A DNA stretch of 64,000 nt from an uncultured Methanosarcinales archaeon (GCA_964512765.1 CAZEKF010000001.1:66366-130365); one strand, 5' to 3'; counted from the first letter of the stretch, positions 13,713 through 60,632 are shown. Made by a program: numbers and translations. The notes: a model not told the origin generated them from the sequence alone.

Positions 13713-13730
13713 TTACTATTATAAATCTTC

Positions 13731-45091: not shown

Positions 45092-46738
45092 ATGACGAAA
45101 AAGAAAAGATTAATGGATGATGCAGATCTTGATCAGTTTGTTAGAGACTGTATTCTTATATGGTATAATCGAACTGATGCACAGCCAATAACCGAAGAAC
45201 AGTCAAAAAAAATTTACAGAACAATTGGTGATATGGTTAACGCACACGAATTAGTCGCAGAGGTTTTTGAAGCTACGCAAGACATAATTCCTTTAATTGT
45301 TTATGATGAAGTACGCGTTTTAAGAAAAGAAATTGATCAGTATGATTCTCTTCTTTATGTTTTACATGGTAATTTTGATTATAGAGATGCACATCTAAGA
45401 CACGGAGATTCTTTGTTGGCTGTTTTAGCACAACACGTAGACTTGGCTACACCATACGAAACATGGAGACAACAACAAAACTTTTCTAAAGTTGATAATG
45501 TCACTGAACAACCTCAACAAGCACAAGCATTTGAAGTTGAACCAGGAGAAGAACATCACCACGTAGTACAACAATCTGTCCGAGATGAAATTCCGGTAAA
45601 TGCATCAGCAAGAGTTGAGGATATGCGTCTTGACGGTCATGCTTTACAAATACCAGGGACAGGAGTAACAGTTGCCACTCAGCTTGACCAACATCAAATT
45701 ATTGTTTCAGGAACAGCACCTAATAATTTTGTTATTCATCTACCAGGAGATCTTGGTGATAAATTACAAGACGGGTTACTTATAGTTGATACAATCGATA
45801 GGTTTTCACCTGAAATACGTCGTTTTGATTTTTTTTCAAGAGCTGAGCGAATTGCAGCTGGGCATGAAAAAGGGATAGCTACAAACTTATATCCGTCAGG
45901 ACAAGGAGCTAGTGCAACAATTACTTTTCAACAACCAGCAAACTATTTGTTAGTGCCTTTAGATGGAGATGGTGCATTAACTTGTGAACGAGGGAGATTC
46001 AAAGGATATATTGGGACATATAATTTGCGAAGATTTGAAAGAAATTTTAATATTTCTAATTTTCTTTTGGCAAACTTTAATTTTATTGTCAGTAAGTTAT
46101 CTGATCAGCCATTATTATTTGGACCTGTTCAAAAAGTGAATGTTAATGGTCAAGGATACGCAATAATTCAAGCATCTAAGGGAACTCAGACAGTTACCAT
46201 GCCTCCCCATGATGAACAAGATTTAGAATCGCCTGTTATTGCATACAAAAATGTTTTTTTCAAAGATAAAGGGTTGCCTTATAAAATTGGCATGGAAGTA
46301 ATTACTGCAGGAGGGTTAGCATCATTAGCTCTTATTTTTGGTGATAAAGCACCAGAAATAGGTAAAATGATTGGAGGATTTGCTGCAGGGTATTATGCTA
46401 CATCTGCAACGGTTGGCAAACGTACTTTTAAAAACACTTTAGTTAGTATTGTTACTGGTGTTGCTTGTGCAGCAACTACACAAATTAATTACGAACCAGT
46501 ACAAGAAGTTGTTCAAAATATTGTTGAACCTGTTTATGCGGGATTAGACGGATTATTTCTTGGGAGAATTCTATATGGAACAATATTTAATCCTATTAGG
46601 ATTAAAAACTGGGGAGAAAGAATATTTAGAATGTTATACTTGAGCAAAACCAATAATGCATTGACACAACCAGTAGCCTATACTAAAGAGAAAGTTGGTC
46701 ATGTTATAGAAGGAAGAATTGGTAGAGCTAGGGAATAA
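45092..46738 (+). CDS. Hypothetical protein with a C-terminal glycine-zipper membrane region (548 aa)
   Basis: About 400-aa soluble N-terminal region, then GxxxG-rich helices (VITAGGLASLALIFG, IGGFAAGYYATSA). Composition shift relative to the core genome. Confidence 0.3.
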   Translation: MTKKKRLMDDADLDQFVRDCILIWYNRTDAQPITEEQSKKIYRTIGDMVNAHELVAEVFEATQDIIPLIVYDEVRVLRKEIDQYDSLLYVLHGNFDYRDAHLRHGDSLLAVLAQHVDLATPYETWRQQQNFSKVDNVTEQPQQAQAFEVEPGEEHHHVVQQSVRDEIPVNASARVEDMRLDGHALQIPGTGVTVATQLDQHQIIVSGTAPNNFVIHLPGDLGDKLQDGLLIVDTIDRFSPEIRRFDFFSRAERIAAGHEKGIATNLYPSGQGASATITFQQPANYLLVPLDGDGALTCERGRFKGYIGTYNLRRFERNFNISNFLLANFNFIVSKLSDQPLLFGPVQKVNVNGQGYAIIQASKGTQTVTMPPHDEQDLESPVIAYKNVFFKDKGLPYKIGMEVITAGGLASLALIFGDKAPEIGKMIGGFAAGYYATSATVGKRTFKNTLVSIVTGVACAATTQINYEPVQEVVQNIVEPVYAGLDGLFLGRILYGTIFNPIRIKNWGERIFRMLYLSKTNNALTQPVAYTKEKVGHVIEGRIGRARE

Positions 46739-48110
46739 CCTCTTCGTAATAATCTGTTATTTTGAATGAATCAATAATTGTTGTGTTGTTTCCACTCACT
46801 TGATGAGCATTACCTATCAACGCGTTTTCATGCACGTCTATAGTTACAAAGTGATAAATACCGCATTTTGCATATTTTTGTAAAAAATTTATGCTTTGCT
46901 CATGATGACGTATTCCCCAACTACAGTCTTTTAATGGACCTCCTCCTCCGCCTGTTACAATAGTATGAATGAAGGTATTTGGAAAGATAAAAGTTTGTTC
47001 AGCACCGTTTTCGGGTTTAGTTTTATGCCCATCGTCAGGAACAGCATACCTTTCATATGAATGTAAATGACCTGAAAACACCATTGTTACATCATATTCT
47101 CTGAATAAATCTTCATAAAGATTACTTACTTTGGTAGTTTTACTCTCACCCATAGTAGCTGTATAAAACGGCATGTGCATGTATACAATAATGTTTTCTA
47201 TACCCTCCATTGATCGTGCTTGTTGAAGATGATTTTTTACCCAACCAACAGGTGTATTTCTCCAATATTCGTTTCCTTGTTCAAATGAAATAAAATATGT
47301 GTTTTTGTATCTAAAAGCATAGTTTGTTCCGTACTGAAGATCGCTTGGCGAACCAGATTCATGTGTGTTTGAAGGAGGGAACAACTTAAAATTATCTCCA
47401 AGTCCAGGGTTGCTTAGAAGAGAACTAAGAAATGACCTATATTGAAGAATTCCGTCTTGTGCTTGGTCATGGTTTCCGCTTGTTGGGAAGAAAGGTATAC
47501 CGTTTAGTTTATTTGTGAAACACTGGTTAAATCTACTGTAAGCACCGCCTGACCATCCCCAGTCCATTAAATCACCAGTATGAATTACTAAATTTGGGTT
47601 AGTCTGTGCTAACAAAGAGGGTAAACTTGATCTTTCAGCACCGCCGCATGAGTTTGTTGCATACTGTGTATCTCCAACAACGCCAAATCTAAACAAAAAT
47701 TCACCGTCTAATGATTCTGCGACTAATTTGTCCACAGGATTTCCTACCCACAACTCTAGTTTTTTTGAAGCTTCTGGTGTAGGTGTTGTCATTTGCGTAG
47801 ATGTCAATAAAATTTCTTGCGTTGGTGTCATAACATCTGTCGTTGGTGTATATACTTGAGTAGGATTTAATAGAACTTCTAAAGTAGGTGTTGTTGTAAT
47901 ATCAGATGAAACCACAGTGCCTAATGTGAAATCTGTTGAAAAAGCAATTGGGCTTGGAGTGACATAAACTTGTGCTTGGTTCTGTGATACAGATGTTGAA
48001 GAAGTTACTGTGCCATAGACCCAGCCAACAGTTACAGCACCGCCTAACAGTACAAGAGATCTTACTAAACCATTTTTCTTTTTCCTACGCCTACGTCTTC
48101 TTCTTGTCAT
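46728..48110 (-). CDS. Arg-tail signal-anchored surface protein with a calcineurin-like metallophosphatase domain; C-terminal ...EEVIP tag
   Basis: MTRRRRRRRKKK plus TM. T/P-rich stalk. Metallophosphatase motifs GDTQY, GDLMD, GNHD, MHMP, GHLHSYER. Ends DYYEEVIP. Confidence 0.7.
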   Translation of the reverse strand: MTRRRRRRRKKKNGLVRSLVLLGGAVTVGWVYGTVTSSTSVSQNQAQVYVTPSPIAFSTDFTLGTVVSSDITTTPTLEVLLNPTQVYTPTTDVMTPTQEILLTSTQMTTPTPEASKKLELWVGNPVDKLVAESLDGEFLFRFGVVGDTQYATNSCGGAERSSLPSLLAQTNPNLVIHTGDLMDWGWSGGAYSRFNQCFTNKLNGIPFFPTSGNHDQAQDGILQYRSFLSSLLSNPGLGDNFKLFPPSNTHESGSPSDLQYGTNYAFRYKNTYFISFEQGNEYWRNTPVGWVKNHLQQARSMEGIENIIVYMHMPFYTATMGESKTTKVSNLYEDLFREYDVTMVFSGHLHSYERYAVPDDGHKTKPENGAEQTFIFPNTFIHTIVTGGGGGPLKDCSWGIRHHEQSINFLQKYAKCGIYHFVTIDVHENALIGNAHQVSGNNTTIIDSFKITDYYEEVIP

Positions 48111-48116
48111 TTTTAT

Positions 48117-49469
48117 TTAAGGTATAGCTTCATCAGGATCATACTCTTCCACATTTGAAGCAACATGAACATCAGATTGTAACCTTGCAACCCAGATTTC
48201 GCTGTTTGATTTTTTCAAAGAATAACTGTGCTGCTGGTCTATCTTACCATATAGTAACCATAGTTCTTGGTTCATTCTATATATTTGATTTGCAGAATAA
48301 TGTTGGAAATTACCTTCTCCATTAAGAACCCACTTACCTGTTCTGTTCCAATTAATACCGTCACTGCTATACGTCCATTCTAAATGAACATTACCTTCAG
48401 CATGAACACGATCAACGCCTTCTCTAATGTTACGTAATTCTGGTTCATAAATCCAAAGAACACCTAAATATCCATTCTGAACTTGTGTAACTGCCATACC
48501 ATAGAAATGCGTGTCTTTTCCTTCTTTATCAATCTCACTTTGGTTTGGCACAAGCACTAGCTGTGGTTCAGACCAATTAATAAAATCATCAGATACAACT
48601 CTAGCAACAGTTCTTATTCTTACACCTTCAATATTTTCTTGTCTTTTAACATATCCAACATATTTATTTAACCTGAAATCATAGAAAAAGTTAGCAACAT
48701 CGCTCCAATTTGTATATGGGCCACCTATTTGATTAAAATCAATACCATTTGTAGATTCATATGCCATAAATCCGTTGTCTCGTTTATATACCATTAATTT
48801 CATGGTCTTTGTACCATCATAAACAACAGACGTCATGTTAGAATTTTCAAATAAAATCCGTTCGTTACTCCACTCATTACCATTACCACTTTCTACAACT
48901 CTAATGCTTGACCCAGAACCCGATGCTTTATCCCAATGAGTGAAATAAAGAAAATAGTTGTCACGATTTTCTCCTTTTGGTAAAATTCCACCATACACAT
49001 ACTCGATACCTTCAAACCTGTTTCCTTCTGTAAAAAGTATAGAATTATCTATAACTCTAACACTGTTAATCCAAGAAGCCAAATCAAACTCAAGATTACA
49101 TAAATATTCAGGAGGGCATAAAGATGCTTCTATTGTATTTTCAAGTGTAGGTGTTAAGGTTACAATTGGTGTTGAAGTTAACAACACTTTTGGTGAAGGA
49201 GTAAGTATAACCGGTTGAGTAGGATCAGACACAATAGTACCATCTGCAAAAGGTTCAGAAAAAGTAGGAATTGTCTGGTTGTTGTCAGAATGTTCTTTTG
49301 GATTATAAGGTAAGATAGCAGCTATTTGGTCAAATATTGGTTCGTTAAAATCAATCTGGCTTATTACATAACCTGTGTATAAAGAAGCTCCTCCTATTAA
49401 AGCAACTGTTCCAATAGTTTTAAGGAAATTTCCTTTTCTTTTCCTTCTTCTACGTCTTCGTCTTGCCAT
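48117..49469 (-). CDS. Arg-tail signal-anchored surface protein with a beta-propeller glycoside-hydrolase-like domain; C-terminal ...DEAIP tag
   Basis: MARRRRRRRKRK plus TM. T/P stalk. W/Y/G-rich repeated blocks typical of GH32/43/130-type propellers (the fold assignment is tentative). Ends EEYDPDEAIP. Confidence 0.4.
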   Translation of the reverse strand: MARRRRRRRKRKGNFLKTIGTVALIGGASLYTGYVISQIDFNEPIFDQIAAILPYNPKEHSDNNQTIPTFSEPFADGTIVSDPTQPVILTPSPKVLLTSTPIVTLTPTLENTIEASLCPPEYLCNLEFDLASWINSVRVIDNSILFTEGNRFEGIEYVYGGILPKGENRDNYFLYFTHWDKASGSGSSIRVVESGNGNEWSNERILFENSNMTSVVYDGTKTMKLMVYKRDNGFMAYESTNGIDFNQIGGPYTNWSDVANFFYDFRLNKYVGYVKRQENIEGVRIRTVARVVSDDFINWSEPQLVLVPNQSEIDKEGKDTHFYGMAVTQVQNGYLGVLWIYEPELRNIREGVDRVHAEGNVHLEWTYSSDGINWNRTGKWVLNGEGNFQHYSANQIYRMNQELWLLYGKIDQQHSYSLKKSNSEIWVARLQSDVHVASNVEEYDPDEAIP

Positions 49470-49475
49470 TTTTAT

Positions 49476-51134
49476 TTAAGGTATTATTTCTTCATAAAAT
49501 TCATTTCCTTCGAAAATTCTATCTCGAACAACATAATATGCTGCACTACACTCAACAGGTGAGTCTGTAATGCCTTCACCAACACAACCATATTCAGGTG
49601 TTTTAAATGGAGATTTTACAGCACCTGTTATAGAAGTAGAGAGCATAAAATCCTTAACAGCATTTGCAACAGCTTCATAACACCTAAAACTGTCAAAAGG
49701 GAACCCTTCCACAGCTTGGCAACTCATTAAATTGTTTGTTAACCAAGCAAGTTGGTCAAGACTTGTGTCATAATTAAGTGGTTCCTGAAAATTTAATACA
49801 TTTATCATATATCTAACATGCCACATATGACCTAACTCATGTGCAAAAACTTTTGTGAATATTTCTTGAGACACTGTATCTCTGTTTTTCATTATAATTT
49901 CATTATAGGAAACAACACCAGAGTCTGTTGTATTTTGAAAGCTTGTAACACCAGTGTCTGAACACGTCACAATTAACGGATCATTAAATAATACATAAGG
50001 TCCAACTCTTGTAACGAGTTCTTCTGCCCAAACAGGAATTTCTTGTCTACAGTTGTTAAAAGATACTAAACCAAATTCATATGTAGGGGCTTGTGCAACA
50101 ACTACAGTCGGAGTAGGTACAAGAGGTGTGTTAGTCAAAGTAGGGTTGAGAACACCAGTTGGCGTAGCTATCGCAACTTGACCACTACCTTGGTCAGGTT
50201 GAGAAATATCTACTTCAACAAACACACCTTTGTAATCAGGATATAAACTGCTAAGGTTTTCTAAACTAGTAGATTGTACACCACCTGCTGCAGTTGAATG
50301 AATAACAGTAACACCGTTATTAGTTGGGATCGCTATTCCAACATGCGAATATTCTCTTATGCCACCTTTATCATGGTTAAGTGTCCATAGATACATTTTA
50401 CCAATTTCCATATGATTACCAATATCATCCCATTTATCAGGGTCATAACCTTGGAACTCAGTAAATCCGTCTATTGGTTTAAATATCTGAGAATTTGGAT
50501 CAATAATGTATGCAATGTTAAGTGTCTGGTCCCAACCATATGCTTGCCTTAAAACTTCGTCATCTGCAGGTCGGTCTGTTCTTTGTTGAAATGCGTCGTC
50601 AAGTTTGATATTAACTCTACTAATTGCTCTGGCAGCTTGTAACTGATACCCTGCACAGTTGAATCCAATAACATTATCAATTGTTGGTGCACCACCTGTC
50701 CAATAAACAAACGAGCCATTATCATCAATAAAACCAAAGTTCTTGTAAGGCACGCCAATGTACTGACTTGCGTCATTTAAAGCCATTTGTGCAATTTCGT
50801 CAACACTTTTACTCGTCTGTGTAAAAAATAACGTTGGAGTTGGAGTTAACATTAAAGCATCAGGCGTAGGAGTTAATGCTACTGGTTGAGTAGGTCCAGG
50901 GATAAGTGTACCATTCATGAAACTTTCAGGAAAAATAGGAATTGCTTGATTATCATCAGATTGTTCTTTTGGGTTGTAAGGTAAGATAGCAGCTATTTGG
51001 TCGAATATTGGCTTGTCAAAATCTATCTGACTGATTAGATAACCACTGTATAAAGCTCCACCTATTAGAACCAAGTTTACACCAGTCCTAAGACAACCGC
51101 CTCCTCTCCTTCTTCTACGTCTTCGTCTTGCCAT
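49476..51134 (-). CDS. Arg-tail signal-anchored surface protein with NlpC/P60-like cysteine peptidase and HEXXH zinc-metallopeptidase domains; C-terminal ...EEIIP tag
   Basis: MARRRRRRRRGGG plus TM. NCAGY (Cys) and HVGIAIP...IHSTAAGG (His) of NlpC/P60. AHELGHMWH zincin motif. Ends NEFYEEIIP. Confidence 0.6.
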   Translation of the reverse strand: MARRRRRRRRGGGCLRTGVNLVLIGGALYSGYLISQIDFDKPIFDQIAAILPYNPKEQSDDNQAIPIFPESFMNGTLIPGPTQPVALTPTPDALMLTPTPTLFFTQTSKSVDEIAQMALNDASQYIGVPYKNFGFIDDNGSFVYWTGGAPTIDNVIGFNCAGYQLQAARAISRVNIKLDDAFQQRTDRPADDEVLRQAYGWDQTLNIAYIIDPNSQIFKPIDGFTEFQGYDPDKWDDIGNHMEIGKMYLWTLNHDKGGIREYSHVGIAIPTNNGVTVIHSTAAGGVQSTSLENLSSLYPDYKGVFVEVDISQPDQGSGQVAIATPTGVLNPTLTNTPLVPTPTVVVAQAPTYEFGLVSFNNCRQEIPVWAEELVTRVGPYVLFNDPLIVTCSDTGVTSFQNTTDSGVVSYNEIIMKNRDTVSQEIFTKVFAHELGHMWHVRYMINVLNFQEPLNYDTSLDQLAWLTNNLMSCQAVEGFPFDSFRCYEAVANAVKDFMLSTSITGAVKSPFKTPEYGCVGEGITDSPVECSAAYYVVRDRIFEGNEFYEEIIP

Positions 51135-51140
51135 TTTTAT

Positions 51141-52694
51141 TTAAGGTATTAATTCATCTGGTCCGTCATAATGAACTGTTGCAAAATTTACAACTGACCG
51201 ACCACTCCAAGTATATTCGTACAGCCTACCATTAAAATAAATCTGTTGCGATCCTCCAGCGTCCATGTTAATTGCAGAATGTGCACCAATGTTGTCCATT
51301 ATTTCTGCAGCATTGCACAAAGTCATTGGTTGAGTTATCATAACAAATAAGGTATTATCATTCACGCCAATCACTGTTCTTCCTCTTGAACCCCATTTAG
51401 GAGAATGACAATCTTGTTTAATGTCAGGATAAAAATCACCGCCGTAGTTGCTTCTATTAAACAAAGTATTGTTACCAGAAACAGCGTATAATATACCGTC
51501 GAAGTTACTGTTAATGTGCCTAATTGTTACTCTACCATTTTCATAAACTACTAATGAAGGCTCTCTAGGGTTTCCAGCATGGACATGATTACGATGTACA
51601 TACGGACCTTTAGGAACAGATGAACCAGAGTCCCATTGATCAGCATTAACAGTAAAAATTACATTATGGCTGTTAGCATATCCTTGCGCAGTATTTAACC
51701 CACCAGGTGCAGAAGATCCAACATTAATGTAAGGACTACACAAATCAAATTTAAACAAAGTATAATTGCCATTATTTTTAATTATTATAGGCTCATCCCT
51801 TGGTTTACAGTTATTTGGTCCTTGTGATTCTTCTGTTGGTCTAGGAGTATGTGTCAATGTAGGGACAGGAGTTGGTGTACTAATTAGATGTTTAATATCT
51901 ATATTACCTAAATCAGGTGAATAACTTTTAACTGCATCTTTTAGATGTTGGTAAGGATAACTGTTATTTGCAAAGCGCAACATTTCTTTTTCAGCTAGAT
52001 CGTAACTGTAGTTTTCGAACTCCACCCTATATATACCAACAATCATACCTGCTCTATGCGCACCATGCTGGCAATGAACATATACCGGTTGCATAGCAGG
52101 ATCTTTAATAATTGTCATAATCTCTAGAATATTTTTGTTAAAATCATGATGTGTAGGAGATTCTGCATTCATTGGATATTTATCAATGTAAATCATGCCT
52201 CTTTGTTCAACTAATGATCGTTCATTAGGCATTCCTTGAGACAAATCTATAACTGTTTTAAATCCTTGAGCTTGTAAATAATCAAAAGCAGCAGCAGAGT
52301 CTGGTTGAGCACCTGCAGCTAACACACCAGGATCAATCCATCTTAAATGAGTTACTGGTGAACCTTCAACTAAAGGAGGAATTTCTGCTTTAACAACAAT
52401 GTCAAGCGTAGTAGTTGGTTGAGGTGTAGGTGTATGGGTTGGCATCAATGTGGGCAGAGGAGTGTGAGTTAATGTTGCTAAAGTTTCTGGTGTTATGTAT
52501 GGGTCTGTTGGTGCGTACAGTACTGTTGCAGTAGTATCTAAGATTTGCTGAGCAGACATGTTATTAACATGAGCAGATGCATGGTCCCTTGTTTTAAAAT
52601 AAACAAATGACGCCGCTGTACCAAGAATAAATAATCCAAGAGGTATAACACAACTATTTCTACGATTCTTTCTTCTACGTCTCCTACGTGCCAT
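51141..52694 (-). CDS. Arg-tail signal-anchored surface protein with a CX5R (PTP/DSP-type) phosphatase domain and a phosphodiester-glycosidase (NAGPA-like) domain; C-terminal ...DELIP tag
   Basis: MARRRRRRKNRRN plus TM. VHCQHGAHRAG is an HCxxGxxR P-loop. C-terminal AINMDAGGSQQ resembles the NAGPA/DUF2233 motif. Ends YDGPDELIP. Confidence 0.6.
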   Translation of the reverse strand: MARRRRRRKNRRNSCVIPLGLFILGTAASFVYFKTRDHASAHVNNMSAQQILDTTATVLYAPTDPYITPETLATLTHTPLPTLMPTHTPTPQPTTTLDIVVKAEIPPLVEGSPVTHLRWIDPGVLAAGAQPDSAAAFDYLQAQGFKTVIDLSQGMPNERSLVEQRGMIYIDKYPMNAESPTHHDFNKNILEIMTIIKDPAMQPVYVHCQHGAHRAGMIVGIYRVEFENYSYDLAEKEMLRFANNSYPYQHLKDAVKSYSPDLGNIDIKHLISTPTPVPTLTHTPRPTEESQGPNNCKPRDEPIIIKNNGNYTLFKFDLCSPYINVGSSAPGGLNTAQGYANSHNVIFTVNADQWDSGSSVPKGPYVHRNHVHAGNPREPSLVVYENGRVTIRHINSNFDGILYAVSGNNTLFNRSNYGGDFYPDIKQDCHSPKWGSRGRTVIGVNDNTLFVMITQPMTLCNAAEIMDNIGAHSAINMDAGGSQQIYFNGRLYEYTWSGRSVVNFATVHYDGPDELIP

Positions 52695-52740
52695 GATGTT
52701 CTCATCGACCAGTAGTAAATAGTTATATTTAAAGATAGTG
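52650..52740 (-). repeat. Copy 1 of an approximately 90-bp duplicated segment covering the leaderless promoter (TATA-like TTTAAATATAACT) and the first approximately 14 codons of the Arg-tail gene
   Basis: A 45-mer CATGATGTTCTCATCGACCAGTAGTAAATAGTTATATTTAAAGAT at 52692..52736 is identical to 54313..54357. The flanks are near-identical. Confidence 0.7.
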
Positions 52741-52785
52741 GGTTTTCAATATGATTTTACTGTATAATTGAAGAAGAATTAGGTG

Positions 52786-54315
52786 CTATGGAATAGGTTC
52801 ATCATAATTATATTCATAAGCGGTTCTAAATGAGCTTGCAATATCTATACTGTTTCCAGAAATTAAAACTAATTTTCCACTATTTGACCCATTCATGGTT
52901 GGTATTGTTAAATTAACATTACCTTCTTCATTTGCTTGAATAACATCACCAGTAAAAACATTTGTTAATATTTCATAAGCTGGTAGTCCATTGAGCGTAT
53001 AATTTCTGGATTCTTGTGTTAAATTGACTAGGTAATACATTTGGGAGTCATTAGGCCCTTGCCTGACCATGTATGCAATACCATTTTGGTTTCCATATTC
53101 TGGATTTGATCCAGTTAACCAAGGCATTAACGCATGAAGTTCATGACCAATCTCACTAATAGTATTCCATAAAGATTCGTATAAACATGGTTTATTATAT
53201 TCACATTCTGGCCAATCCCATAAGGCAATACCATTAGCACCGCCAACAATTGCTTCGTCAATTCGTTGCCTAAGCATACCTCTTGATTGATTATAATTAA
53301 AATGTGCTGGTAAAACAACAAATGTAGAGTTTGAAATACCAGATTCTTTTTTACTTGATAACTGTCTTACTGAATTAAATGTTTTTCCAGTTCCTGAATA
53401 GTTATGATAAAAGTCAGCACCCCATATATCACCTAAGAGAGTATTAAATAATTGATCAGAAGAATAACCAAAATTAGGTTGATCCATTCTGTGATGTAAT
53501 ATTAATGTGTCGTGAACTGCATTGTTATGAATTTTTTTGTGGAGCCTTGTAACTTTTTCAGATATTAAGTTCCAATTTTTAATTAAATTAGGTTCATCTT
53601 TTCCATAGAACCATAACATTGAAGGATGATTATCTACAAAATTAATGAATTCAATTAGTTCTTCAGGTTTTTCGTCATATGTGTCAAATCGAGGAATCAT
53701 CATCATGCCAAATTCTCTGGCATGTTCAAAAATTTTGGGACCATATGGCTGCATAACAATTGTGTTAATACATGCATTAGACACTCTTTGCCACACATTC
53801 ATATTATGATTTATTTCAGCATCAGGCCCAAAGTCAGGATTATCAAATGCACCAGGAGGCCTAGGTAAATAATATATTCCAAATGGAAAAAAACCTGTTC
53901 CTTGTTGAGGGAGACCGTCACCAGTAATAATTATTGAACCTTGATTTTCATAATTTATTTGATTAGCACCATTTGCATACCAGGAAGGAACACATATAGT
54001 ATTATGTTGAACTAAATCTTGGAGATTTTGGACTTGAAGGGTGGGCGTTAGGGTAGGTAATGGTGTTGGTGTTGAAGTAGGTAATGGAGTATGAGTTAAA
54101 GTTGGTAATGTTTCAGAAGTCACAATTGTTTGAGTAGGTACAAAAAAAGCTTGTTGTGCAGGAGTCGCAACACTATTTTGTTGAACAGATGCTGCAATAT
54201 TTGGTATTACTTCTTCAAACATAAAATATGACACAGTAGTACCTAAAATAAATAATCCAAGAGGCACAACACAACTATTTCTACGTTTACTTCTTCTACG
54301 TCTCCTACGTGCCAT
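52786..54315 (-). CDS. Arg-tail signal-anchored surface protein with a TIM-barrel glycoside-hydrolase-like domain (tentative); C-terminal ...DEPIP tag
   Basis: MARRRRRRSKRRN plus TM. T/P stalk. WFYGKDEPN resembles the GH clan-A NEP acid/base strand. Ends YNYDEPIP. Confidence 0.35.
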   Translation of the reverse strand: MARRRRRRSKRRNSCVVPLGLFILGTTVSYFMFEEVIPNIAASVQQNSVATPAQQAFFVPTQTIVTSETLPTLTHTPLPTSTPTPLPTLTPTLQVQNLQDLVQHNTICVPSWYANGANQINYENQGSIIITGDGLPQQGTGFFPFGIYYLPRPPGAFDNPDFGPDAEINHNMNVWQRVSNACINTIVMQPYGPKIFEHAREFGMMMIPRFDTYDEKPEELIEFINFVDNHPSMLWFYGKDEPNLIKNWNLISEKVTRLHKKIHNNAVHDTLILHHRMDQPNFGYSSDQLFNTLLGDIWGADFYHNYSGTGKTFNSVRQLSSKKESGISNSTFVVLPAHFNYNQSRGMLRQRIDEAIVGGANGIALWDWPECEYNKPCLYESLWNTISEIGHELHALMPWLTGSNPEYGNQNGIAYMVRQGPNDSQMYYLVNLTQESRNYTLNGLPAYEILTNVFTGDVIQANEEGNVNLTIPTMNGSNSGKLVLISGNSIDIASSFRTAYEYNYDEPIP

Positions 54316-54362
54316 GATGTTCTCATCGACCAGTAGTAAATAGTTATATTTAAAGATGGTGT
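54272..54362 (-). repeat. Copy 2 of the approximately 90-bp duplicated promoter / 5'-CDS segment
   Basis: See copy 1. About 4 mismatches over about 90 bp. Confidence 0.7.
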
Positions 54363-54441
54363 TTTTTATGAAAATTAACTCTTAATTAGTATCAAATAAT
54401 TTTAAATATAACGTGTCATTACTTTTTAGTAAGAATTTATC

Positions 54442-55818
54442 ATGGTAAGATTGAACATTAAAAAAAAGACTAGAAAGCGCTCAAAAAAAAGAAGCTCAAG
54501 AAAGACTTTAAGAAGACGACCTAGTTCAGGTAATTCTCTTCAAAATAAATTGTTAAATTTTATACCTTCAGAGGCACCTGCTCAACGTCCAGGACTTGAA
54601 TTTAAAGATATTGTGGGAGATCTTTTTCGAAGGGGACCATGGTACTTATTTACACCATTTGCTTTGGAATCCGGAGATGCAACTGTTGATATTAATCCTT
54701 CTAGTCCAAGTCACGGGCAAATCATTGGTGATGTTAGTCTTAATCCAGTGAATGATTATGCAATAAATCATGTTACTTTTGAAATTGGGAAATCTATGTT
54801 AAGAGGCATTGCAGCTTCAAAAGAAAATTCAATAGTAGATACAATAATGCATGTAAGTGTTTTAGGATTATCCGGTTATCAATTTTATAATGGTTTTAGG
54901 AGATTAGGACATTTTCTATGGACAAATCCTATTACAGGTATACCCATTAGATCCTTAATAGGAAATTATGCACCAGATTTAGCAATGGCAATTGACATGG
55001 AATACTTGGACTTAAATTCACAACCAGAACAGTACACACCAATGGGTTCATTATTTGTAGGTATTAGCAACATCACTAGAGGATTTGAAGATGGAATTCA
55101 AGCACTGGGACAATTATATTTTGATGTTCTAAGAATGATGGGAAAGGTTGCGGAGTCAGAACCTAAAAGATCTCTTAAAGATATTCTAAAAGATTTAATT
55201 CCAAATATGCCTAGAGAAGCACCTGCTCAACGTCCAGGATTAGAATTTAAAGATATTTTTGCAGACTTATTCAGAAGAGGACCATGGTACTTACTTACAC
55301 CGTTTGCATTAGAGTCAGGAGATGCAACTGTTGATATTAACCCTTCCAGTCCAAGCCATGGACAAATCATTGGAGATTTAAGCCTTAATCCAATAAATGA
55401 TTATGCAGTTAGCCATGTCTCATTTGAAATTGGAAAATATGTATTAAGGGGCATTGCAGCAGCTGAGAAACGTCCTAAAGTAGATTTGTTAATGCACGGA
55501 CTTGTTGGTGCATTATCTGGTTGGCAAATTGCATATGGTTTAAAAAGATTTGGACATTTTCTATGGACAAACCCATTTACAGGCATACCTCTTAGATCTT
55601 TTATAGGTAGTAATGCACCAGATTTAGCGATGGCAATTGACATGGAATATTTAGATTTAAGTTTACAACCTGAACAGTATACGCCTATTAGTTCATATTT
55701 TGTAGGAATTAGTAATATCACCAGAGGAATTGAAGATGGAATTCAAGCAGTAGGGCAATTATATTATGATACTCTTAGAATAATGGGACGAGTTGCAGAA
55801 CCTGATGATATGTATTAA
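54442..55818 (+). CDS. Basic-tail protein made of two tandem approximately 200-aa repeats of an unknown domain
   Basis: N-terminus KKKTRKRSKKRSSRKTLRRRP with no TM. Residues 44-258 and 259-458 are about 75-80% identical (EAPAQRPGLEFKDI...GDATVDINPSSPSHGQIIGD...). Confidence 0.4.
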   Translation: MVRLNIKKKTRKRSKKRSSRKTLRRRPSSGNSLQNKLLNFIPSEAPAQRPGLEFKDIVGDLFRRGPWYLFTPFALESGDATVDINPSSPSHGQIIGDVSLNPVNDYAINHVTFEIGKSMLRGIAASKENSIVDTIMHVSVLGLSGYQFYNGFRRLGHFLWTNPITGIPIRSLIGNYAPDLAMAIDMEYLDLNSQPEQYTPMGSLFVGISNITRGFEDGIQALGQLYFDVLRMMGKVAESEPKRSLKDILKDLIPNMPREAPAQRPGLEFKDIFADLFRRGPWYLLTPFALESGDATVDINPSSPSHGQIIGDLSLNPINDYAVSHVSFEIGKYVLRGIAAAEKRPKVDLLMHGLVGALSGWQIAYGLKRFGHFLWTNPFTGIPLRSFIGSNAPDLAMAIDMEYLDLSLQPEQYTPISSYFVGISNITRGIEDGIQAVGQLYYDTLRIMGRVAEPDDMY

Positions 55819-55829
55819 TTTAAAGAATT

Positions 55830-57314
55830 TTATCCAGTAATTTGATTTTGTTTGTTATGAGTTTGATTATGATCATATAACTCTTTTGTACTTAGACTAG
55901 TTGTTGCTGCAACTTGTTTAATTTGCATATGGTCATTGTTTGCCCATGAAGAAATTCTATTTACAGCTGCATGTATCTTTTCCATATCTCCTTTTGCGTA
56001 CATTCTAACACAAGCCAAACGGTAGTTAGGGGGAAGTTTTCTTAATTTTTTTTTTTTAATTTGTTTTACAGGATCTCTAAACAAACCAGTTTTCGGCATC
56101 CAGTCACCGTAAGCATATTCAGGTATTACTTCAAATACCTCTTCAGGATCAAATTCATCAATTCCTTTGAACATTCTTTCAGTCCATGTTGCTTCATCAG
56201 GCGGCATCCATGGTGCTATGGAACAGTTTCGAAACCTAGCAATTGAGTTGGCTCTAGGCTGTGGAGTGTACGGATATCCATACAATGGATAGTAAATTTG
56301 TACTTCTAATTCAAGACCACCAGACTTTTCTTTTTCTATTTCACTAACGTACCCAACTACTAAGTCACCGTCTATTTCAACAGGATTTAACTGGGAAGAA
56401 ACACCAGGAATGGGATCCCATCTTGGGTTTAGAGCTCTTCCCAAGAATAAATGATCAGCATATCTATCTCTGTATCCTTCCATTTGTGAAAGATGTCTTG
56501 GTAAAGCAAAAAGACCACCTAGATCATAAACTCTTTTTGAAAATTCAACTTCTAATTCCATCTGCCCTGTATTTGTATCATGGTCAATATCAGCAAAAAC
56601 CAAAGTACCCAAACTTCTATCAAATATTTTAGGCAAAGCATTTAAAAATTGAACTCTAGCCATTTGTTCTGGATCAAGTTGTAATATTTTAATTGCATTC
56701 AAGATGTATTTAGTAACATAGGTCATGGGACCTTGCGAAAGAATGTTGACGTTTGATATGTATGGGCCGCTAGCAAGTGCATTAATAAGACGCTTACCAA
56801 AAGCATCTATAGTAATTTCAGTCTTTACATCTCGATCTTCCACAGGATATTGTCCAATTCTGTATCTGTTTTTTGATGCTTGAATTTCTTCGTAGGCAAA
56901 ATGATGTTTGAGATGGTGAACTGAAAAATCTGTAAACAGTGTTGCAAGCATATCTGGACTTCCTGCCATTTTAAAATCTAACTCTAACTTTGCATACGAT
57001 CTGTTTGGATAAAGTTCTAACCTTGTGTCACTACCTATGTATTCTTCTTGTTTAGGAACACGTTGAACTATACTTGCAAGCCCTTTTCTAATTTTCCTAT
57101 GTTTTGTTTTGTCTAAACTAAAAACTGGTTGCTCAGATTGCTGTGGCGGAGGAGTGTCCCATACCATGATTTGAGGTTCTGTTTGACCTAAATCTGTAGT
57201 TATTTCTCCTCCTTGGGTAGTTGTTATTCTAGAATCGTTGGATTTTGGACTAGTCATATCGCATGAGATTATTAAGTTAATATTTAAATATTTGCTTTTT
57301 CTAACTACTTTCAA
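55830..57314 (-). CDS. Hypothetical soluble protein (494 aa)
   Basis: Long ORF with no TM and no recognised motifs. Island-type composition. Confidence 0.3.
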   Translation of the reverse strand: MKVVRKSKYLNINLIISCDMTSPKSNDSRITTTQGGEITTDLGQTEPQIMVWDTPPPQQSEQPVFSLDKTKHRKIRKGLASIVQRVPKQEEYIGSDTRLELYPNRSYAKLELDFKMAGSPDMLATLFTDFSVHHLKHHFAYEEIQASKNRYRIGQYPVEDRDVKTEITIDAFGKRLINALASGPYISNVNILSQGPMTYVTKYILNAIKILQLDPEQMARVQFLNALPKIFDRSLGTLVFADIDHDTNTGQMELEVEFSKRVYDLGGLFALPRHLSQMEGYRDRYADHLFLGRALNPRWDPIPGVSSQLNPVEIDGDLVVGYVSEIEKEKSGGLELEVQIYYPLYGYPYTPQPRANSIARFRNCSIAPWMPPDEATWTERMFKGIDEFDPEEVFEVIPEYAYGDWMPKTGLFRDPVKQIKKKKLRKLPPNYRLACVRMYAKGDMEKIHAAVNRISSWANNDHMQIKQVAATTSLSTKELYDHNQTHNKQNQITG

Positions 57315-57369
57315 GTGATAAAATTAGTATTATTTATATATAACTTGTAATTACTCATCGATAATAAAA

Positions 57370-58398
57370 ATGCCTAGACGTAGAAGACGAAAGAAAGGAA
57401 TAGTGTCACCTCTGTTAATAGTTCCTGTTGTACTTTCTGCGACTAGTTGTTATTTAGTTTATTCAGTTCTTAAGTCTGATGATGGTGCTCTGGCACAAAA
57501 CAATGTTGTAATGATAACCACAACCTCAGAATACACTGCTACTCCTGCATACACATTAACTGCTGTTCCACCTGAATTAACACCAGAGGCAACAGTTGTT
57601 TTACAAGATTCTCATGGAGAAGGTTTCCCTGCAATACCTGCTGAGTTATTTAGTGGGATTCCTTCTAACCCAGGGGGAGGAGCTTTAGACGGTAGTTTGT
57701 TGCCAACATCTACACAAATGCCAAGAATGGGCTCTGAAGATCAACAGCCAAGAGAAGAACCGAATAATCCACAACCTGATCTTGGGAACTGTGCTATTAC
57801 TTACCCGTTTCAAGGAACACTAGGAGTTGATTTTTCAAGAACCTCGGGACCCCATACTTATGGAGCAGCAATAAATGGGGTTTCTCAGAATGCAGAAGAT
57901 TATGGAACTGCTGCAAATGTTGATCCAGTAATAGCTGTAATCTCAGGCAAAGTACTTTACTCATCACATGCACAATTATTGATTGATGGTCCTTGTTACT
58001 GGGCTTATTATTATCATGTTGACCAAGACCTGAGATACGGTCAACAAGTTGAAATTGGTCAAGCTATTGGTAGAGAAGCTTGTAATGTTGATAGTACTTC
58101 AGCAGGTTGTAGTGGTCCTCACGTTCACCTTAATATTTACGTTAAAGCTCAAGGACGAAGTGTGCCATTATCAGCTCTTAATGTCACATCTTGGCCAAAA
58201 GGTAATTCATATAATCCCTTCCAGGAGATTAGCGTAGCTTCTGCTATAGATTTTTTAGTTGCAAAAGAAACTTTGCAGGGCTATGAAGCAACACCACATG
58301 CTTTTGTATCTAAACAATTAGCAAGCGGTATTTATGTGCCTTCTTCAAAGAAAAAAAATGTTTTAGATGAAATAGTATGGGACCAGCCAATTTTGTAA
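57370..58398 (+). CDS. Arg-tail signal-anchored M23-family (LytM/lysostaphin-like) metallopeptidase
   Basis: MPRRRRRKKG plus TM. M23 motifs YYHVDQD (HxxxD) and GPHVHLNIY (HxH). Ends DQPIL. Confidence 0.65.
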   Translation: MPRRRRRKKGIVSPLLIVPVVLSATSCYLVYSVLKSDDGALAQNNVVMITTTSEYTATPAYTLTAVPPELTPEATVVLQDSHGEGFPAIPAELFSGIPSNPGGGALDGSLLPTSTQMPRMGSEDQQPREEPNNPQPDLGNCAITYPFQGTLGVDFSRTSGPHTYGAAINGVSQNAEDYGTAANVDPVIAVISGKVLYSSHAQLLIDGPCYWAYYYHVDQDLRYGQQVEIGQAIGREACNVDSTSAGCSGPHVHLNIYVKAQGRSVPLSALNVTSWPKGNSYNPFQEISVASAIDFLVAKETLQGYEATPHAFVSKQLASGIYVPSSKKKNVLDEIVWDQPIL

Positions 58399-60632
58399 AT
58401 GGAATAGCACTTGTAACAACAGCTGCTAGGTTGTTGGTACCTGCTGCAGGAGAAGTAATAGCATCTGATACTGTAGAAAGCCCGCAACAATCTGTTTCTA
58501 TTTGCCAGGCAATTAATGATCCAGGCAGTATTGGTGGTGATCTAGGCAATTTAGTTAATGCACTGGCATCTGCAGCTAGCCAAGCGCCAAGACATGGTAT
58601 TGGAATGAATGGTGGTGTGGAAAAAATAACAGCAGACGTGTTTGGCTGCGGTGAAATGGAGTTAACTGGCAAGTTTTTATCAACACTACCTGCGGCAGTT
58701 GCATTGTACTATGAACAATCTGACATTTCTTCAATGATTTCCAATGCAAGAAGTTACCCAGGTGGTGACCCTAGCAATGAAATAAGATCTGCTGTAGTTG
58801 TTGCGTTGTCAATGACTGAAAAAGGTAGAAAGATATTATCTGATCATGGAATTAATGGAAACATTAACGATGGAGCACAATTATTAATGGCAGTAAACAG
58901 GTTTGATGGTAAAGGACACGACATTATACCTTTACAAGACGCGTATTATTTAAGAACAGCTCTTCAAAATGGTAGAATTGTTGATGCTACTGCTTATAAC
59001 GAGAAAGCAATGTGGTATTATCAACAGGTAATGTCCAGTCCAATTTTAAGAGCTACCATGACAAGGATATCGATTAGAGAATGGACTCACAGACATGGAG
59101 CACAAAGTTACTGGGTGCAAATGGGTGGACGAATTAATTATTATCCAGACCATCCATCAAAAATATTTAACAGTGGAAAATGGTCAAGTTCTGCCTATGG
59201 AAAATACCAGTGGTTGACAAAGACATGGAATGATTTTTCTAAAAAGTTTCTTAATGCTCCAGGAATGGATCCTGTTTCACAAGAGTTAGGCGCTCCTGTT
59301 TTAATGAGAGAAAAAAGAAGTTGTTTTGATTTAGTTAGAGCAGGAGATAGAAATAGTCTAACAAGTGCTTTATCAGAATTAGGCTGTGAATGGGCAGGTG
59401 TACCGAATAGCTTAGCCAGAAGTGGGTGTATTTCTGGACAAAATCCAGCTGAGTCTGGTCAAGCATTTATAGACGCTGTATTTAGTACACATCTTCAAGA
59501 AGCAGAAAATATGCAAGACCAAGCATTTAAAACATTGTCAAGTGCAGGCCATCTTGGACCTTATTTGATAGTGCCTGCATTTAATTTTCCTGCTGGGTCA
59601 GTTGTTAAACTGCATACAAGTTCAGGTATAGTTGAAGTTCAAGGTCCAATTGCTATTCCAACATCTAATTTAGGCGACTGGGCGCAAAACAATAACTGGT
59701 CAGATACACGCGCGGGAGAATATACACCAGGTAATGGTTCTATTCCAATGAGTTATGTTAAGTGGATTAATGAACCAGACATGAGGCCAGTTGTTAATGT
59801 TCCTCAAGACATTGTTGCTGCACCAGAAGATTATGTGTTAAGTGGTGGTGCATCTTCTGCACCAGGCAGTGTTCCTGCAATGCAACTTGACGACACAGCT
59901 GAGACACTTGGTGTAATAGATCAAACTAGAGTGTCATCATATGGTAAGTTTGATGTGGAGTACGATGATCTTATGACTGCGTTTATAAAATCAGATACAG
60001 AAGTTACGCTTAACATTAGATCAATGAATATGGAAACAATAATTCACCAAGATAATATGTTTAAAATTGCACTAGGTAAAAACCTTGAAGTTGAAGGAGA
60101 CAGTTTGTCCTTAATAGGTTGGGGTAATCAGTTTAACCTTGAAGTTAATCAAAATTCTGCTGTTTTACAGTTACCTCAAAGTGAGGGTTATTTTGGTATA
60201 GGACTTATTTATGAAACAAATGGTATTTCTTATATCTTAAATACCAAAACAATTTTTGAAAGTCCTGCGTTAAGAGGAGAGTTTACATTTTTCGAATTAG
60301 ATTTACCTACAATAACTGATGATAACATGCAAAACCTTGACATTGCAGCTGTTGAACTTTCATGGAAAATGTATCAAGAAACTTTTGGTATTGTTTATAA
60401 TCCAGAAGAAATTGTAGAAAGAAAAGCTGAATGGGAAAGATATTCAAGAGATACTAATCATCCAGCTAATTTCTTTTATGTAGAAGCTGTTGGTATGCTT
60501 GCAAACACACCTATTTTTGGATATAATGATTCAGGTGAAATAATTGCTCTTGAACATGTTACACAGAACATGTTATTGCCTGTTCAAACATATGAATCTA
60601 ATATTGATTATTATCAAGAAGTTATACCTTGA
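58377..60632 (+). CDS. Large hypothetical secreted/surface protein (751 aa) with a C-terminal ...QEVIP tag
   Basis: Overlaps the M23 gene by 22 nt. No Arg tail. Ends DYYQEVIP like the minus-strand family. Domains not recognised; a muralytic partner role is speculative. Confidence 0.35.
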   Translation: MGPANFVNGIALVTTAARLLVPAAGEVIASDTVESPQQSVSICQAINDPGSIGGDLGNLVNALASAASQAPRHGIGMNGGVEKITADVFGCGEMELTGKFLSTLPAAVALYYEQSDISSMISNARSYPGGDPSNEIRSAVVVALSMTEKGRKILSDHGINGNINDGAQLLMAVNRFDGKGHDIIPLQDAYYLRTALQNGRIVDATAYNEKAMWYYQQVMSSPILRATMTRISIREWTHRHGAQSYWVQMGGRINYYPDHPSKIFNSGKWSSSAYGKYQWLTKTWNDFSKKFLNAPGMDPVSQELGAPVLMREKRSCFDLVRAGDRNSLTSALSELGCEWAGVPNSLARSGCISGQNPAESGQAFIDAVFSTHLQEAENMQDQAFKTLSSAGHLGPYLIVPAFNFPAGSVVKLHTSSGIVEVQGPIAIPTSNLGDWAQNNNWSDTRAGEYTPGNGSIPMSYVKWINEPDMRPVVNVPQDIVAAPEDYVLSGGASSAPGSVPAMQLDDTAETLGVIDQTRVSSYGKFDVEYDDLMTAFIKSDTEVTLNIRSMNMETIIHQDNMFKIALGKNLEVEGDSLSLIGWGNQFNLEVNQNSAVLQLPQSEGYFGIGLIYETNGISYILNTKTIFESPALRGEFTFFELDLPTITDDNMQNLDIAAVELSWKMYQETFGIVYNPEEIVERKAEWERYSRDTNHPANFFYVEAVGMLANTPIFGYNDSGEIIALEHVTQNMLLPVQTYESNIDYYQEVIP

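Follow-up and report, generated by a model that had tools for sequence, protein, structure and literature searches.

A shared C-terminal E-x-I-P peptide on modular hydrolases of a Woesearchaeota gene island as a possible docking or sorting motif

Why do proteins with unrelated catalytic cores end in the same few residues? The question is raised by a window of 64,000 nucleotides, the whole stretch of DNA analysed here, which comes from a Woesearchaeota (DPANN) archaeon. Seven proteins, designated A to E, F2, and G, carry an acidic-aromatic tail of 6-8 residues of the form [Y/F]...[D/E/Q]-E-x-I-P-COOH. On the minus strand, it reads DYYEEVIP and TAG in A (46728..46754, overlapping by 11 nt the 3' end of the convergent gene U548), YDPDEAIP and TAA in B (48117..48143; EEYDPDEAIP in a longer reading), EFYEEIIP and TAA in C (49476..49502; longer, NEFYEEIIP), DGPDELIP and TAA in D (51141..51167; longer, YDGPDELIP), and YNYDEPIP and TAG in E (52786..52812); on the plus strand, it reads DYYQEVIP and TGA in F2 (60606..60632, overlapping by 19 nt the 3' end of the convergent U668), and G ends in AYNFDEVIP beyond the window end. 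An earlier note on this DNA had read the six C-termini of A to E and F2 as ending in E-x-I-P, and all six read as claimed; the position that it gave for the sixth tail, 58377, is the start of the F2 gene, and its count is extended by G as a seventh carrier, which starts at 62730 on the plus strand. The consensus [DEY][YF]x[DEQ]E[VAILP]IP proposed there holds for P(-1), I(-2), and E(-4), invariant in 7/7 carriers, for D, E, or Q at position -5, and for the free position -3 (V, A, I, L, or P), but not for the placing of the aromatic residue, which lies at -6 to -9.

The sharing of this tail is not due to chance. The enrichment of IP-COOH ends anticipated in the earlier note is indeed found: of the 228 ORFs in the window that reach 30 aa, only A to E and F2 end in IP. 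The 1.3 Mb taken from 80 related genomes contains 1511 ORFs that reach 100 aa, of which two end this way, both probable antisense artefacts, and none has the E-x-I-P motif. A DNA pattern for the tail matches the window four times against 0.02 expected, and the binomial probability of 7 of the 13 island proteins ending in E-x-I-P is ~6e-23, a figure that assumes independence and is weakened by the shared ancestry of the gene ends. The tail is found in no other organism searched, leaving no second lineage with the tag; searches for orthologues of the carriers return none, with tag-less homologues only for A and, for F2, homologues that cover the lysozyme core only. Across samples, the island shows 100% DNA identity and the population is clonal, so a within-species selection signal is absent; in one sample's assembly, a nonsense change removes the tail of B.

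Every tail carrier sits within an inserted, lineage-specific island of ~20.6 kb and 13 genes (44997..64000 in the window, continuing to ~65,700), located between a 135-aa gene on its right (taken from L006; ~65709-66116 when numbered as in the window) and cdc48. In 23/80 related Woesearchaeota/Nanoarchaeota genomes, the 135-aa gene precedes cdc48 by 21-461 bp in the same orientation, and the island proteins have no tblastn match in the 1.3 Mb from those 80 genomes. The GC content is 0.36 in the island versus 0.31 elsewhere in the window, and GC3 is 0.20 versus 0.24. All of its transcription units have a TATA box of the TTTAAATATAA type, which makes co-expression of the island plausible. An integrated virus or plasmid was considered and rejected, given that integrase, capsid, packaging ATPase, and replication hallmarks are lacking and that the endolysin-like core of F2 is the sole PHROG match (E<=0.001); U458 and F2 have no relatives in IMG/VR, and no tRNA or flanking repeat is seen at the island.

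Alongside the hydrolases, the island encodes five untagged orphans of 340-668 aa (U548, U458, U475, U668, and U340), all without a Pfam, PHROG, or phage record and four without a PDB match; U548, U475, U668, and U458 also give no tblastn match in 50,697 phage records. U548 (45092..46738, plus strand) has a Gly-rich hydrophobic C-terminal region, one candidate transmembrane segment, and no Pfam, PHROG, PDB, or phage match. U458 (54442..55818, plus strand) joins a basic N-terminal arm to two tandem repeats of ~215 aa, visible in the DNA as an internal repeat (54561-54860 / 55206-55505, 79% nt identity), and shows no family, PDB, virus, or phage match and no signal sequence. U475 (55830..57257, minus strand) has no family, PDB, or phage match, and a pattern and tblastn search of 185,579 species genomes turns up no relative; U668 (60614..62620, minus strand) returns self-matches only among 5.8 billion protein clusters and no Pfam, PHROG, PDB, or phage match; these last two are known only from this island.

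The remaining eight genes, A to E, F1, F2, and G, are modular hydrolase genes. A (46728..48110, minus strand) consists of an Arg-rich anchor, a Thr/Pro linker, and a purple-acid-phosphatase-like metallophosphoesterase (Pfam Metallophos, E 3e-17) ahead of the tail; its AlphaFold model is confident for residues 131-452, and the top Foldseek matches are purple acid phosphatases. B (48117..49469, minus strand) has the same anchor and linker, and its core gives weak matches only, to GH130 mannobiose phosphorylase (E 8e-5, far under the family cut-off) and to a GH32 PDB chain (E 0.012), so that a beta-propeller of GH130/GH32 type, possibly a glycosidase-like core, is weakly supported. In C (49476..51134, minus strand), read from its sequence, anchor and linker precede two modules with a second Thr/Pro linker between them; a HELGH motif makes C a possible zincin, and its Pfam matches, to C92 amidase and M12 peptidase, are sub-threshold only. 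D (51141..52694, minus strand) carries, after anchor and linker, a DSP-type phosphatase, a further linker, and a NAGPA phosphodiester glycosidase (Pfam PTP-NADK, Y_phosphatase2, and NAGPA), and E (52786..54315, minus strand) has an anchor, a linker, and a core with no match in Pfam or PDB. In addition to its tail, E has the sequence FEEVIP right after its hydrophobic segment (residues 33-38). The untailed F1 (57370..58398, plus strand) combines an Arg-rich anchor and linker with an M23 peptidase (Pfam Peptidase_M23, E 1.6e-7; a weak NCBIfam Pgp3-like match) and is overlapped by 22 nt, in the -1 frame, by F2 (58377..60632, plus strand), whose lysozyme/endolysin-like core (~aa 215-390; phrog_90 endolysin, E 1e-10) lies between orphan regions and is the site of all homology found by exhaustive search (aa ~215-350). 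Lastly, G (62730..64000, plus strand, running off the window to ~64535) begins with MASRAKRRRKLVK and a hydrophobic segment; its 601 aa were completed from L006:8086-9891 (minus strand), and its start at 62730 is confirmed.

The catalytic cores of the carriers are unrelated to one another. In this respect the earlier note, which described the preceding domains as unrelated, was right; it missed the Arg-rich N-terminal anchor that A to E, F1, and G share. The carriers are one modular family with homologous N-terminal anchors. Except for F2, all eight hydrolases begin alike, with Met, 4-9 Arg, and a hydrophobic segment of 20-25 residues that contains Gly/Ser/Thr and has a Tyr near its end, followed in A to E and F1 by a Thr/Pro-rich linker. 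These heads are homologous, B and C being 60% identical over 102 aa of the head and D and E 47% identical over 79 aa. Their first 16 residues total 49 Arg versus 12 Lys in a proteome with an Arg/(Arg+Lys) ratio of 0.26, indicating that the heads select Arg specifically; the window's other putative secreted proteins are tail-less and have signal peptides of the ordinary Lys type. SecY is encoded in the window. Residues 1-130 of A are disordered in the AlphaFold model. From sequence, we infer that the N-terminal module is a signal anchor that keeps the N-terminus in the cell and leaves the C-terminus outside. Head and tail occur apart, in F1 (head only) and F2 (tail only).

The earlier note had also held the tail to be a transferable tag rather than part of a fold, and the case of A agrees. 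Among non-self proteins, the closest homologues of A share ~40% identity with it, and two of them are named, both with a Deltaproteobacteria annotation; these homologues stop at ...DSFT[IV]Q, exactly where DYYEEVIP starts in A. AlphaFold places the end of the last strand of A at residue 452 and models 453-460 as coil whose pLDDT falls to below 50 at the tip, so the tail is predicted to be a flexible appendix outside the catalytic fold. As in C-terminal short linear docking motifs, its key positions are kept on otherwise unrelated domains, and, in the model of A, it appears disordered, outside the fold, and at the extreme C-terminus. The homologues of A outside the lineage are clear, bacterial where named, and tail-less, and the carrier hydrolases are best read as largely bacteria-derived.

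Our favoured explanation, held tentatively and at somewhat less than an even chance, is that the E-x-I-P tail serves, in this lineage, as a specific C-terminal peptide for docking or sorting these membrane-anchored, largely bacteria-derived hydrolases. The N-terminal module would act as the signal anchor and the linker would hold the enzyme outside the cell, where the free C-terminal E-x-I-P would serve as a short linear motif for one common putative partner, recognized through the terminal Ile-Pro-carboxylate and the upstream acidic/aromatic residues. In this way, the enzyme set would be docked, retained, assembled, or handed over, and the most plausible partner would be one of the orphans encoded in the island or a component of the cell surface; among the island proteins, Pfam scans detect neither a TPR nor a PDZ domain, and likewise no OB-fold partner. 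Counting against this explanation, F2 bears its tail on a protein that lacks the Arg head, B loses its tail in one assembly, and the tag is confined to a single lineage.

Known C-terminal docking peptides include EEVD-COOH of Hsp70/Hsp90, which binds TPR domains, the ...DDDIPF-COOH end of bacterial SSB, PDZ ligands, and the Y-x-F-COOH beta-signal of OMPs. Like the tail, they are disordered stretches of a few acidic and/or aromatic residues that end the protein and are carried by otherwise different domains; they depend on the free carboxylate end, a feature that may, by analogy, extend to E-x-I-P, and the SSB tail likewise has an acidic run followed by I-P. In contrast, these peptides are cytoplasmic or periplasmic with known receptors, whereas the tail carriers are predicted to be extracellular, end in Pro, and belong to a single lineage. 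The dockerin-cohesin system of the cellulosome resembles the island in its various hydrolases with Thr/Pro-type linkers, one shared C-terminal element, and a possible common scaffold, but a dockerin is a duplicated calcium-binding domain of ~70 aa and the tail has 6-8 residues; dockerin/cohesin was rejected, as Pfam scans of the island proteins find no Dockerin_1 or Cohesin match. The two tandem repeats of U458 may be set beside the cohesin scaffold in this comparison. PGF-CTERM/archaeosortase, PEP-CTERM/exosortase, and LPXTG/sortase also place a C-terminal signature on many unrelated secreted proteins; however, theirs comprises a motif, a transmembrane helix, and a basic cluster, whereas the tail carriers stop right at the motif. 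The earlier exclusion of a PGF-CTERM/archaeosortase signal is therefore upheld: no hydrophobic segment lies near the C-terminus of the seven carriers, and sorting-domain models go unmatched in NCBIfam (E<=1) and Pfam (E<=0.01 for A to E and F2; E<=5 for B, C, E, F2, and G). No sortase-like domain is seen in the ~74 kb of genome read. A type IX secretion CTD, a beta-sandwich of 70-100 aa, was likewise rejected, since the last 70 residues of the carriers are unrelated save for the final ~8 and CTD models are unmatched.

The tail might instead be a passenger, inherited within a gene frame in which the 5' anchor and 3' tail of one template were kept and the middle was swapped for foreign domains; we rate this unlikely. 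Gene conversion at the junctions would keep the ends alike, and three junctions do share a 57-nt repeat (48078..48134, 49437..49493, and 51102..51158, all minus strand; 81-93% identity) that spans tail codons, TAA, ATAAAA, ATG, and Arg codons. The homologous heads, all seven with AGACGTAGR, the 193-nt repeat common to B and C, the 154-nt repeat, promoter included, common to D and E, and the confinement of the feature to one lineage fit the same account. Yet the tails of A, E, F2, and G fall outside the 57-nt repeat and persist where the flanking DNA is not conserved, and E, I, and P stay unchanged while position -3 and the upstream residues have diverged, the codons for E, I, and P vary synonymously (GAA/GAG; ATA/ATT; CCT/CCC/CCA), and three different stop codons are used, which argues for selection on the peptide and not just recent copying. 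The same synonymous differences, with the peptide kept, make it hardly credible that the 3' codons are a nucleotide-level element for translation re-initiation, termination, or recombination. The genes D>C>B>A are separated by TAA and 6 nt only, with junctions kept at the DNA level, as such an element would have it, but A, E, F2, and G bear their tails in different downstream contexts (convergent overlap, a 91-nt spacer, and other stops), and no Shine-Dalgarno-like sequence is seen by eye in the junctions.

A role in export or release, as a type 1-like C-terminal signal, a Tat-like checkpoint for folded export, or a means for F2 to hitch-hike with F1, is considered quite improbable. Acidic-hydrophobic signals at the extreme C-terminus are known for type 1 secretion substrates, F1 and F2 are overlapping neighbours with head and tail divided between them, and the strong selection of Arg over Lys recalls Tat signals: Arg pairs occur in every head, RRRKLVK of G resembles RRxFLK, and LVR, FLK, and CLR lie just past the basic run in A, B, and C (three residues past it in B). 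Against this, the Tat-signal models PF10518 and TIGR01409 are unmatched in Pfam and NCBIfam profile scans of the island proteins, no ABC transporter or other translocon domain is found in the island, and targeting is already explained by the N-terminal anchor. With neither an ABC nor an HlyD domain in the island and with the anchor present in 6/7 tail carriers, type 1 secretion was rejected. An element of stability or processing, whether protection from carboxypeptidases, a maturation site, or a degradation mark on non-exported copies, is distinctly improbable. A C-terminal proline makes a poor carboxypeptidase substrate, the tail of A is predicted to be flexible and exposed, and the island encodes the M23 peptidase F1 and the HELGH motif of C; protection, however, needs neither the invariant E(-4) and I(-2) nor an upstream aromatic residue, and the tail is not tied to any specific protease.

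To return to the docking or sorting peptide, the enzyme set that it would serve (M23 peptidase, lysozyme-like, NAGPA, and phosphoesterases) would fit an arsenal against bacterial cell envelopes. PMC12352652 describes an enrichment of peptidoglycan hydrolases in Nanoarchaeota and one such enzyme, from a halophilic archaeon, that was shown to kill bacteria, and PMC9723730 describes 'vampiristic' Woesearchaeota that carry murein-degrading genes and presumably attack bacteria. In these accounts, DPANN/Nanoarchaeota genomes encode horizontally acquired, bacteria-like enzymes of M23/muramidase type that require secretion, a picture into which F1 and F2 fit, and A has homologues of bacterial type; both papers treat Sec/Tat signal peptides, and the portions considered mention neither a common poly-Arg anchor, nor an E-x-I-P tail, nor an island with five orphan partner genes. 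A bolder reading, rather unlikely as it stands, is that the poly-Arg head and E-x-I-P-COOH tail mark the substrates of a new island-encoded display/effector-delivery system of DPANN archaea, with the five orphans as machinery or scaffold; if true, this system would arm the cell surface with bacteria-derived envelope-degrading enzymes against bacterial prey or hosts. Polymorphic toxin/effector loci, as far as the section of PMC3482391 used here describes them, share with the island tandem cassettes, conserved trafficking ends, swapped enzymatic modules, and recombination-prone junctions. In those loci, the N-terminus is kept, the C-terminal toxin varies, and small immunity genes adjoin, whereas in the island both ends are kept, the middle varies, and the interleaved genes are large orphans.

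Six proteins encoded in the window end in E-x-I-P directly before the stop codon, and the ORF listing and the translations agree on each of them: A (46728-48110, minus strand, ending DYYEEVIP), B (48117-49469, minus, EEYDPDEAIP), C (49476-51134, minus, NEFYEEIIP), D (51141-52694, minus, YDGPDELIP), E (52786-54315, minus, YNYDEPIP), and F2 (58377-60632, plus, DYYQEVIP). The earlier note had counted these six; its count stands for them but is incomplete, since a seventh carrier, G, starts at 62730 on the plus strand, is cut by the window end, and reads through the flanking DNA (L006) as a protein of 601 aa that ends in AYNFDEVIP. When the seven tails are aligned from the C-terminus, P at position -1, I at -2, and E at -4 are invariant (7/7), D, E, or Q occupies position -5, any of V, A, I, L, and P occurs at -3, and an aromatic residue is found at -6 to -9. 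The enrichment of IP termini that the earlier note presupposed is upheld: of the window's 228 ORFs with 30 aa or more, just these six end in IP, against 2 among 1511 ORFs with 100 aa or more in 1.3 Mb of DNA from 80 related genomes, both apparently antisense artefacts, and the E-x-I-P motif closes none of those 1511 ORFs. Moreover, a degenerate DNA pattern of the tail has 4 matches in the window against 0.02 expected. For 7 of the 13 proteins of the gene island that holds the carriers, the binomial probability of ending in E-x-I-P is about 6e-23 with island amino-acid frequencies, a figure to be read with the carriers not being independent, because the gene ends have common ancestry; what matters, then, is whether selection acts on the peptide. 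An internal enrichment of [DE]-x-I-P in the island proteins was also considered and discarded (about 5 observed against about 3 expected, not significant).

The claim that the tag sits on unrelated domains holds for the catalytic cores, which are mutually unrelated in an all-against-all BLASTP comparison, but not for the N-terminal heads, which are alike across A-E and G. Specifically, A is a metallophosphoesterase according to Pfam, and its AlphaFold model resembles purple acid phosphatases; B has weak matches only, to GH130 and GH32 propeller enzymes; C contains an HELGH motif and has only sub-threshold peptidase matches; D has both a dual-specificity phosphatase and an NAGPA phosphodiester glycosidase; the cores of E and G could be given no assignment; and the core of F2 is endolysin-like (phrog_90), with homologues found for the lysozyme core alone (residues ~215-350) in an exhaustive search of 1.84 billion representatives. 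PDB sequence searches with B, C, E, G, and the untagged island proteins U458, U475, U548, and U668 returned nothing usable. Self-matches aside, the closest homologues of A share about 40% identity with it, the two named ones being annotated as Deltaproteobacteria, and they stop at ...DSFT[IV]Q; the counterpart in A is ...DSFKIT, to which DYYEEVIP is appended. The model of A, built with a 52-sequence alignment, is confident at residues 131-452, the latter position being the end of its last strand; coil follows at 453-460, where pLDDT drops below 50, and residues 1-130, that is the head and the linker, are disordered. Homologue boundaries and model thus agree with the earlier proposal that the tag is not part of a fold, and the E-x-I-P peptide lies outside the fold and is predicted to be flexible.

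The heads of A-E, G, and F1 (an M23 peptidase at 57370-58398, plus strand, that bears the head without the tail) open with M-x-R(4-9)[K/R]. Next comes a hydrophobic stretch of 20-25 residues that includes Gly, Ser, and Thr, with a Tyr close to its end, and, in A-E and F1, a Thr/Pro-rich linker. Over its first ~100 residues, B matches C at 60% identity, and D matches E at 47% over ~79. The latter pair also shares a 154-nt repeat (87%; 52593-52746 and 54214-54367), in which 40 nt ahead of the ATG are identical. Counted over their first 16 residues, the seven heads together have 49 Arg and 12 Lys, despite a Lys-preferring genome: Arg/(Arg+Lys) is 0.26 in the rest of the window proteome, in which putative secreted proteins begin with ordinary MKK... 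signal peptides. Arg itself, not mere positive charge, seems to be required and specifically selected in the heads. The codon string AGA-CGT-AGR occurs within the first ~30 nt in 7/7 heads (starts at 48110, 49469, 51134, 52694, and 54315 on the minus strand and at 57370 and 62730 on the plus strand). Right after the hydrophobic anchor, E contains FEEVIP (residues 33-38; window 54205-54222), a near copy of the C-terminal tag, and B and C have DF[ND][EK]PIF in the same place.

Conversely, the lysozyme-like F2 has the tail without the Arg-rich head, and its gene, in the -1 frame, overlaps that of F1 by 22 nt. The head-only and tail-only composition of the two proteins, together with this overlap, suggests that F1 and F2 are the halves of an ancestral head-to-tail gene that has since split, or that they are a translationally coupled pair. 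A programmed -1 frameshift joining them was discarded, there being no canonical slippery site in the 27-nt window that would permit fusion. The island enzymes are shown to be a lineage-specific family of modular proteins in which both gene ends are kept and the middle is swapped; by their sequences, eight hydrolase genes of bacterial type, seven of them tagged, appear to be assembled in one island on a common export frame.

The conservation of the tail could follow from that of the frame, and the main rival to a selected peptide is that the tail is a mere passenger of the duplicated gene frame. This is favoured by a 57-nt repeat common to the three junctions D>C, C>B, and B>A (48078-48134, 49437-49493, and 51102-51158; 81-93% identical), which spans the tail codons, TAA, ATAAAA, the ATG, and the Arg codons of neighbouring genes that lie 6 nt apart, and which could drive gene conversion or cassette shuffling. 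Four tails, however, lie outside the 57-nt repeat, and the pattern of invariant and free tail positions also speaks against a passenger. The invariant residues are encoded by differing synonymous codons (GAA/GAG, ATA/ATT, CCT/CCC/CCA), the tail genes use all three stop codons, and the codon at -3 has completely diverged; these features point to selection on the peptide, and the E-x-I-P pattern is consistent with purifying selection. Three further explanations are possible at lower probability, namely that the tail is an export signal, that it is a stability or processing element, or that it is explained at the nucleotide level.

Docking peptides at the extreme C-terminus are known from EEVD, the SSB tail DDDIPF, PDZ ligands, and the OMP Y-x-F signal, and the E-x-I-P tail resembles them by analogy in position, size, charge, and disorder. 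In contrast, the defining features of PGF-CTERM, PEP-CTERM, and LPXTG signals are absent from the tail, in keeping with the earlier exclusion of a PGF-CTERM/archaeosortase signal, and those of type IX secretion C-terminal domains, dockerins, and type 1 secretion signals are absent from the carriers. All heads contain Arg pairs, as Tat signals do, but they matched no Tat-signal model. We infer an arrangement in which the Arg-rich head would act as a signal anchor, the Thr/Pro linker as a stalk, and the tail as a short linear motif for docking or sorting that a single partner would recognise in all carriers. The observation that opened this analysis is confirmed and extended, and the interpretation of the tail is partly supported.

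DPANN archaea are presumed to live on other cells, and to our knowledge little is known of how they sort and deploy surface enzymes, for which the island offers a compact, self-contained case. Should the tail serve for docking or sorting, it would provide a handle for a receptor search by peptide pull-down or co-folding, make further substrates recognisable by regular expression, and open a route to testing whether Woesearchaeota do attack bacterial cell walls. According to published work, Nanoarchaeota often have peptidoglycan hydrolases, with a halophilic archaeal example that kills bacteria (PMC12352652), and some Woesearchaeota apparently attack bacterial walls (PMC9723730); the enzyme types of the island agree with this evidence.

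Obvious candidate partners of the tail are the five untagged orphan proteins U548, U458, U475, U668, and U340, whose genes are interleaved with those of the carriers, co-location being the sole link. None of the five has a match in Pfam or PHROG, and U548, U458, U475, and U668 have none in the PDB or, by tblastn, in phage genomes. U668 finds only itself among 5.8 billion protein clusters, U475 has no relative in 185,579 species genomes, and neither U458 nor F2 has relatives in IMG/VR. U458 (54442-55818) is made up of an N-terminal arm rich in Lys and Arg and two tandem repeats of ~215 aa, the DNA of which is 79% identical between 54561-54860 and 55206-55505; its single-sequence AlphaFold model is unusable (mean pLDDT 34). 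The tail DNA of A overlaps the opposite-strand last codons of the convergent U548 gene by 11 nt (46728-46738), and that of F2 those of the convergent U668 gene by 19 nt (60614-60632).

Beyond the island, the tag is very narrowly distributed and belongs to one clonal lineage. Among 266 proteins from homology searches, neither the Arg head nor the tail occurs in any besides the island's own, Pfam and NCBIfam hold no model of the tag, and a literature search with the tail peptides gave no relevant match. In IMG/VR, YEE[VILMF]IP followed by TAA has 14 matches, all in short or out-of-frame ORFs except a 132-aa protein (L102) without an Arg-rich head. In the metagenome collection, [YF]YEE[VILMF]IP followed by TAA or TAG has 55, again short or out of frame except one 83-aa protein with an N-terminal membrane segment (L115:512-763, minus strand), which ends in SYYEEVIP on an unrelated 2.5-kb low-GC contig and may be a coincidence. 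The pattern scans account for just two of the seven tail variants, and the source contigs themselves were not recovered from the metagenome collection, so that the metagenome scan is a weak negative. The island DNA is 100% identical among several metagenome samples, and a strain variant (L159, ENA sample ERZ23498668) aligned to window 39380-53668 shows two differences in 14.3 kb, a single substitution and a 9-nt deletion. The former, TTA to TAA in B, removes the last 21 residues including the tag, and the latter removes three residues (QKY) from A.

All carriers lie between cdc48, which starts at 44996, and a gene of 135 aa just past the window end, in a block that runs from 44997 to 64000 and on to about 65,700 (L006:6913-10000). 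In 23 of 80 related Woesearchaeota genomes, the 135-aa gene precedes cdc48 on the same strand at a distance of 21-461 bp, which marks the ~20.6-kb block of 13 genes as a lineage-specific insertion; tblastn of the island proteins against the 80 related loci gave no match. A few other relatives hold one or two unrelated genes in this interval, which may thus be a variable site. The island contains no recognisable integrase, tRNA, border repeats, or viral hallmark genes, and no att-like repeats are seen at its borders. Its GC content is 0.36 against 0.31 in the rest of the window, an excess due to the amino acids encoded (fewer Lys and Ile residues; more Pro, Thr, and Arg) and not to foreign codon usage; since GC3 is low as in the host (0.20 against 0.24), the island is either old enough to have adapted or from an equally AT-rich donor. 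A TTTAAATATAA-like TATA box precedes the ATG of every island transcription unit by about 30-40 nt (upstream of 45092, 54442, 57257, 57370, 62620, and 62730), which makes joint regulation possible. Outside the island, the window carries archaeal genes, including SecY, AglB/STT3, Cdc48 (76% identical to versions from Nanoarchaeota/Woesearchaeota MAGs), aEF-1beta, and Trm1. At 114-14429, SecY and the AglB/STT3 oligosaccharyltransferase are accompanied by an epimerase, several GT2 glycosyltransferases, and large polytopic membrane proteins, an export and glycosylation neighbourhood that could also serve the enzymes with Thr/Pro linkers. Lastly, a free-standing ORF at 40392-41405 (minus strand), between the aEF-1beta and AP-endonuclease genes, has a faint LAGLIDADG homing-endonuclease signature.
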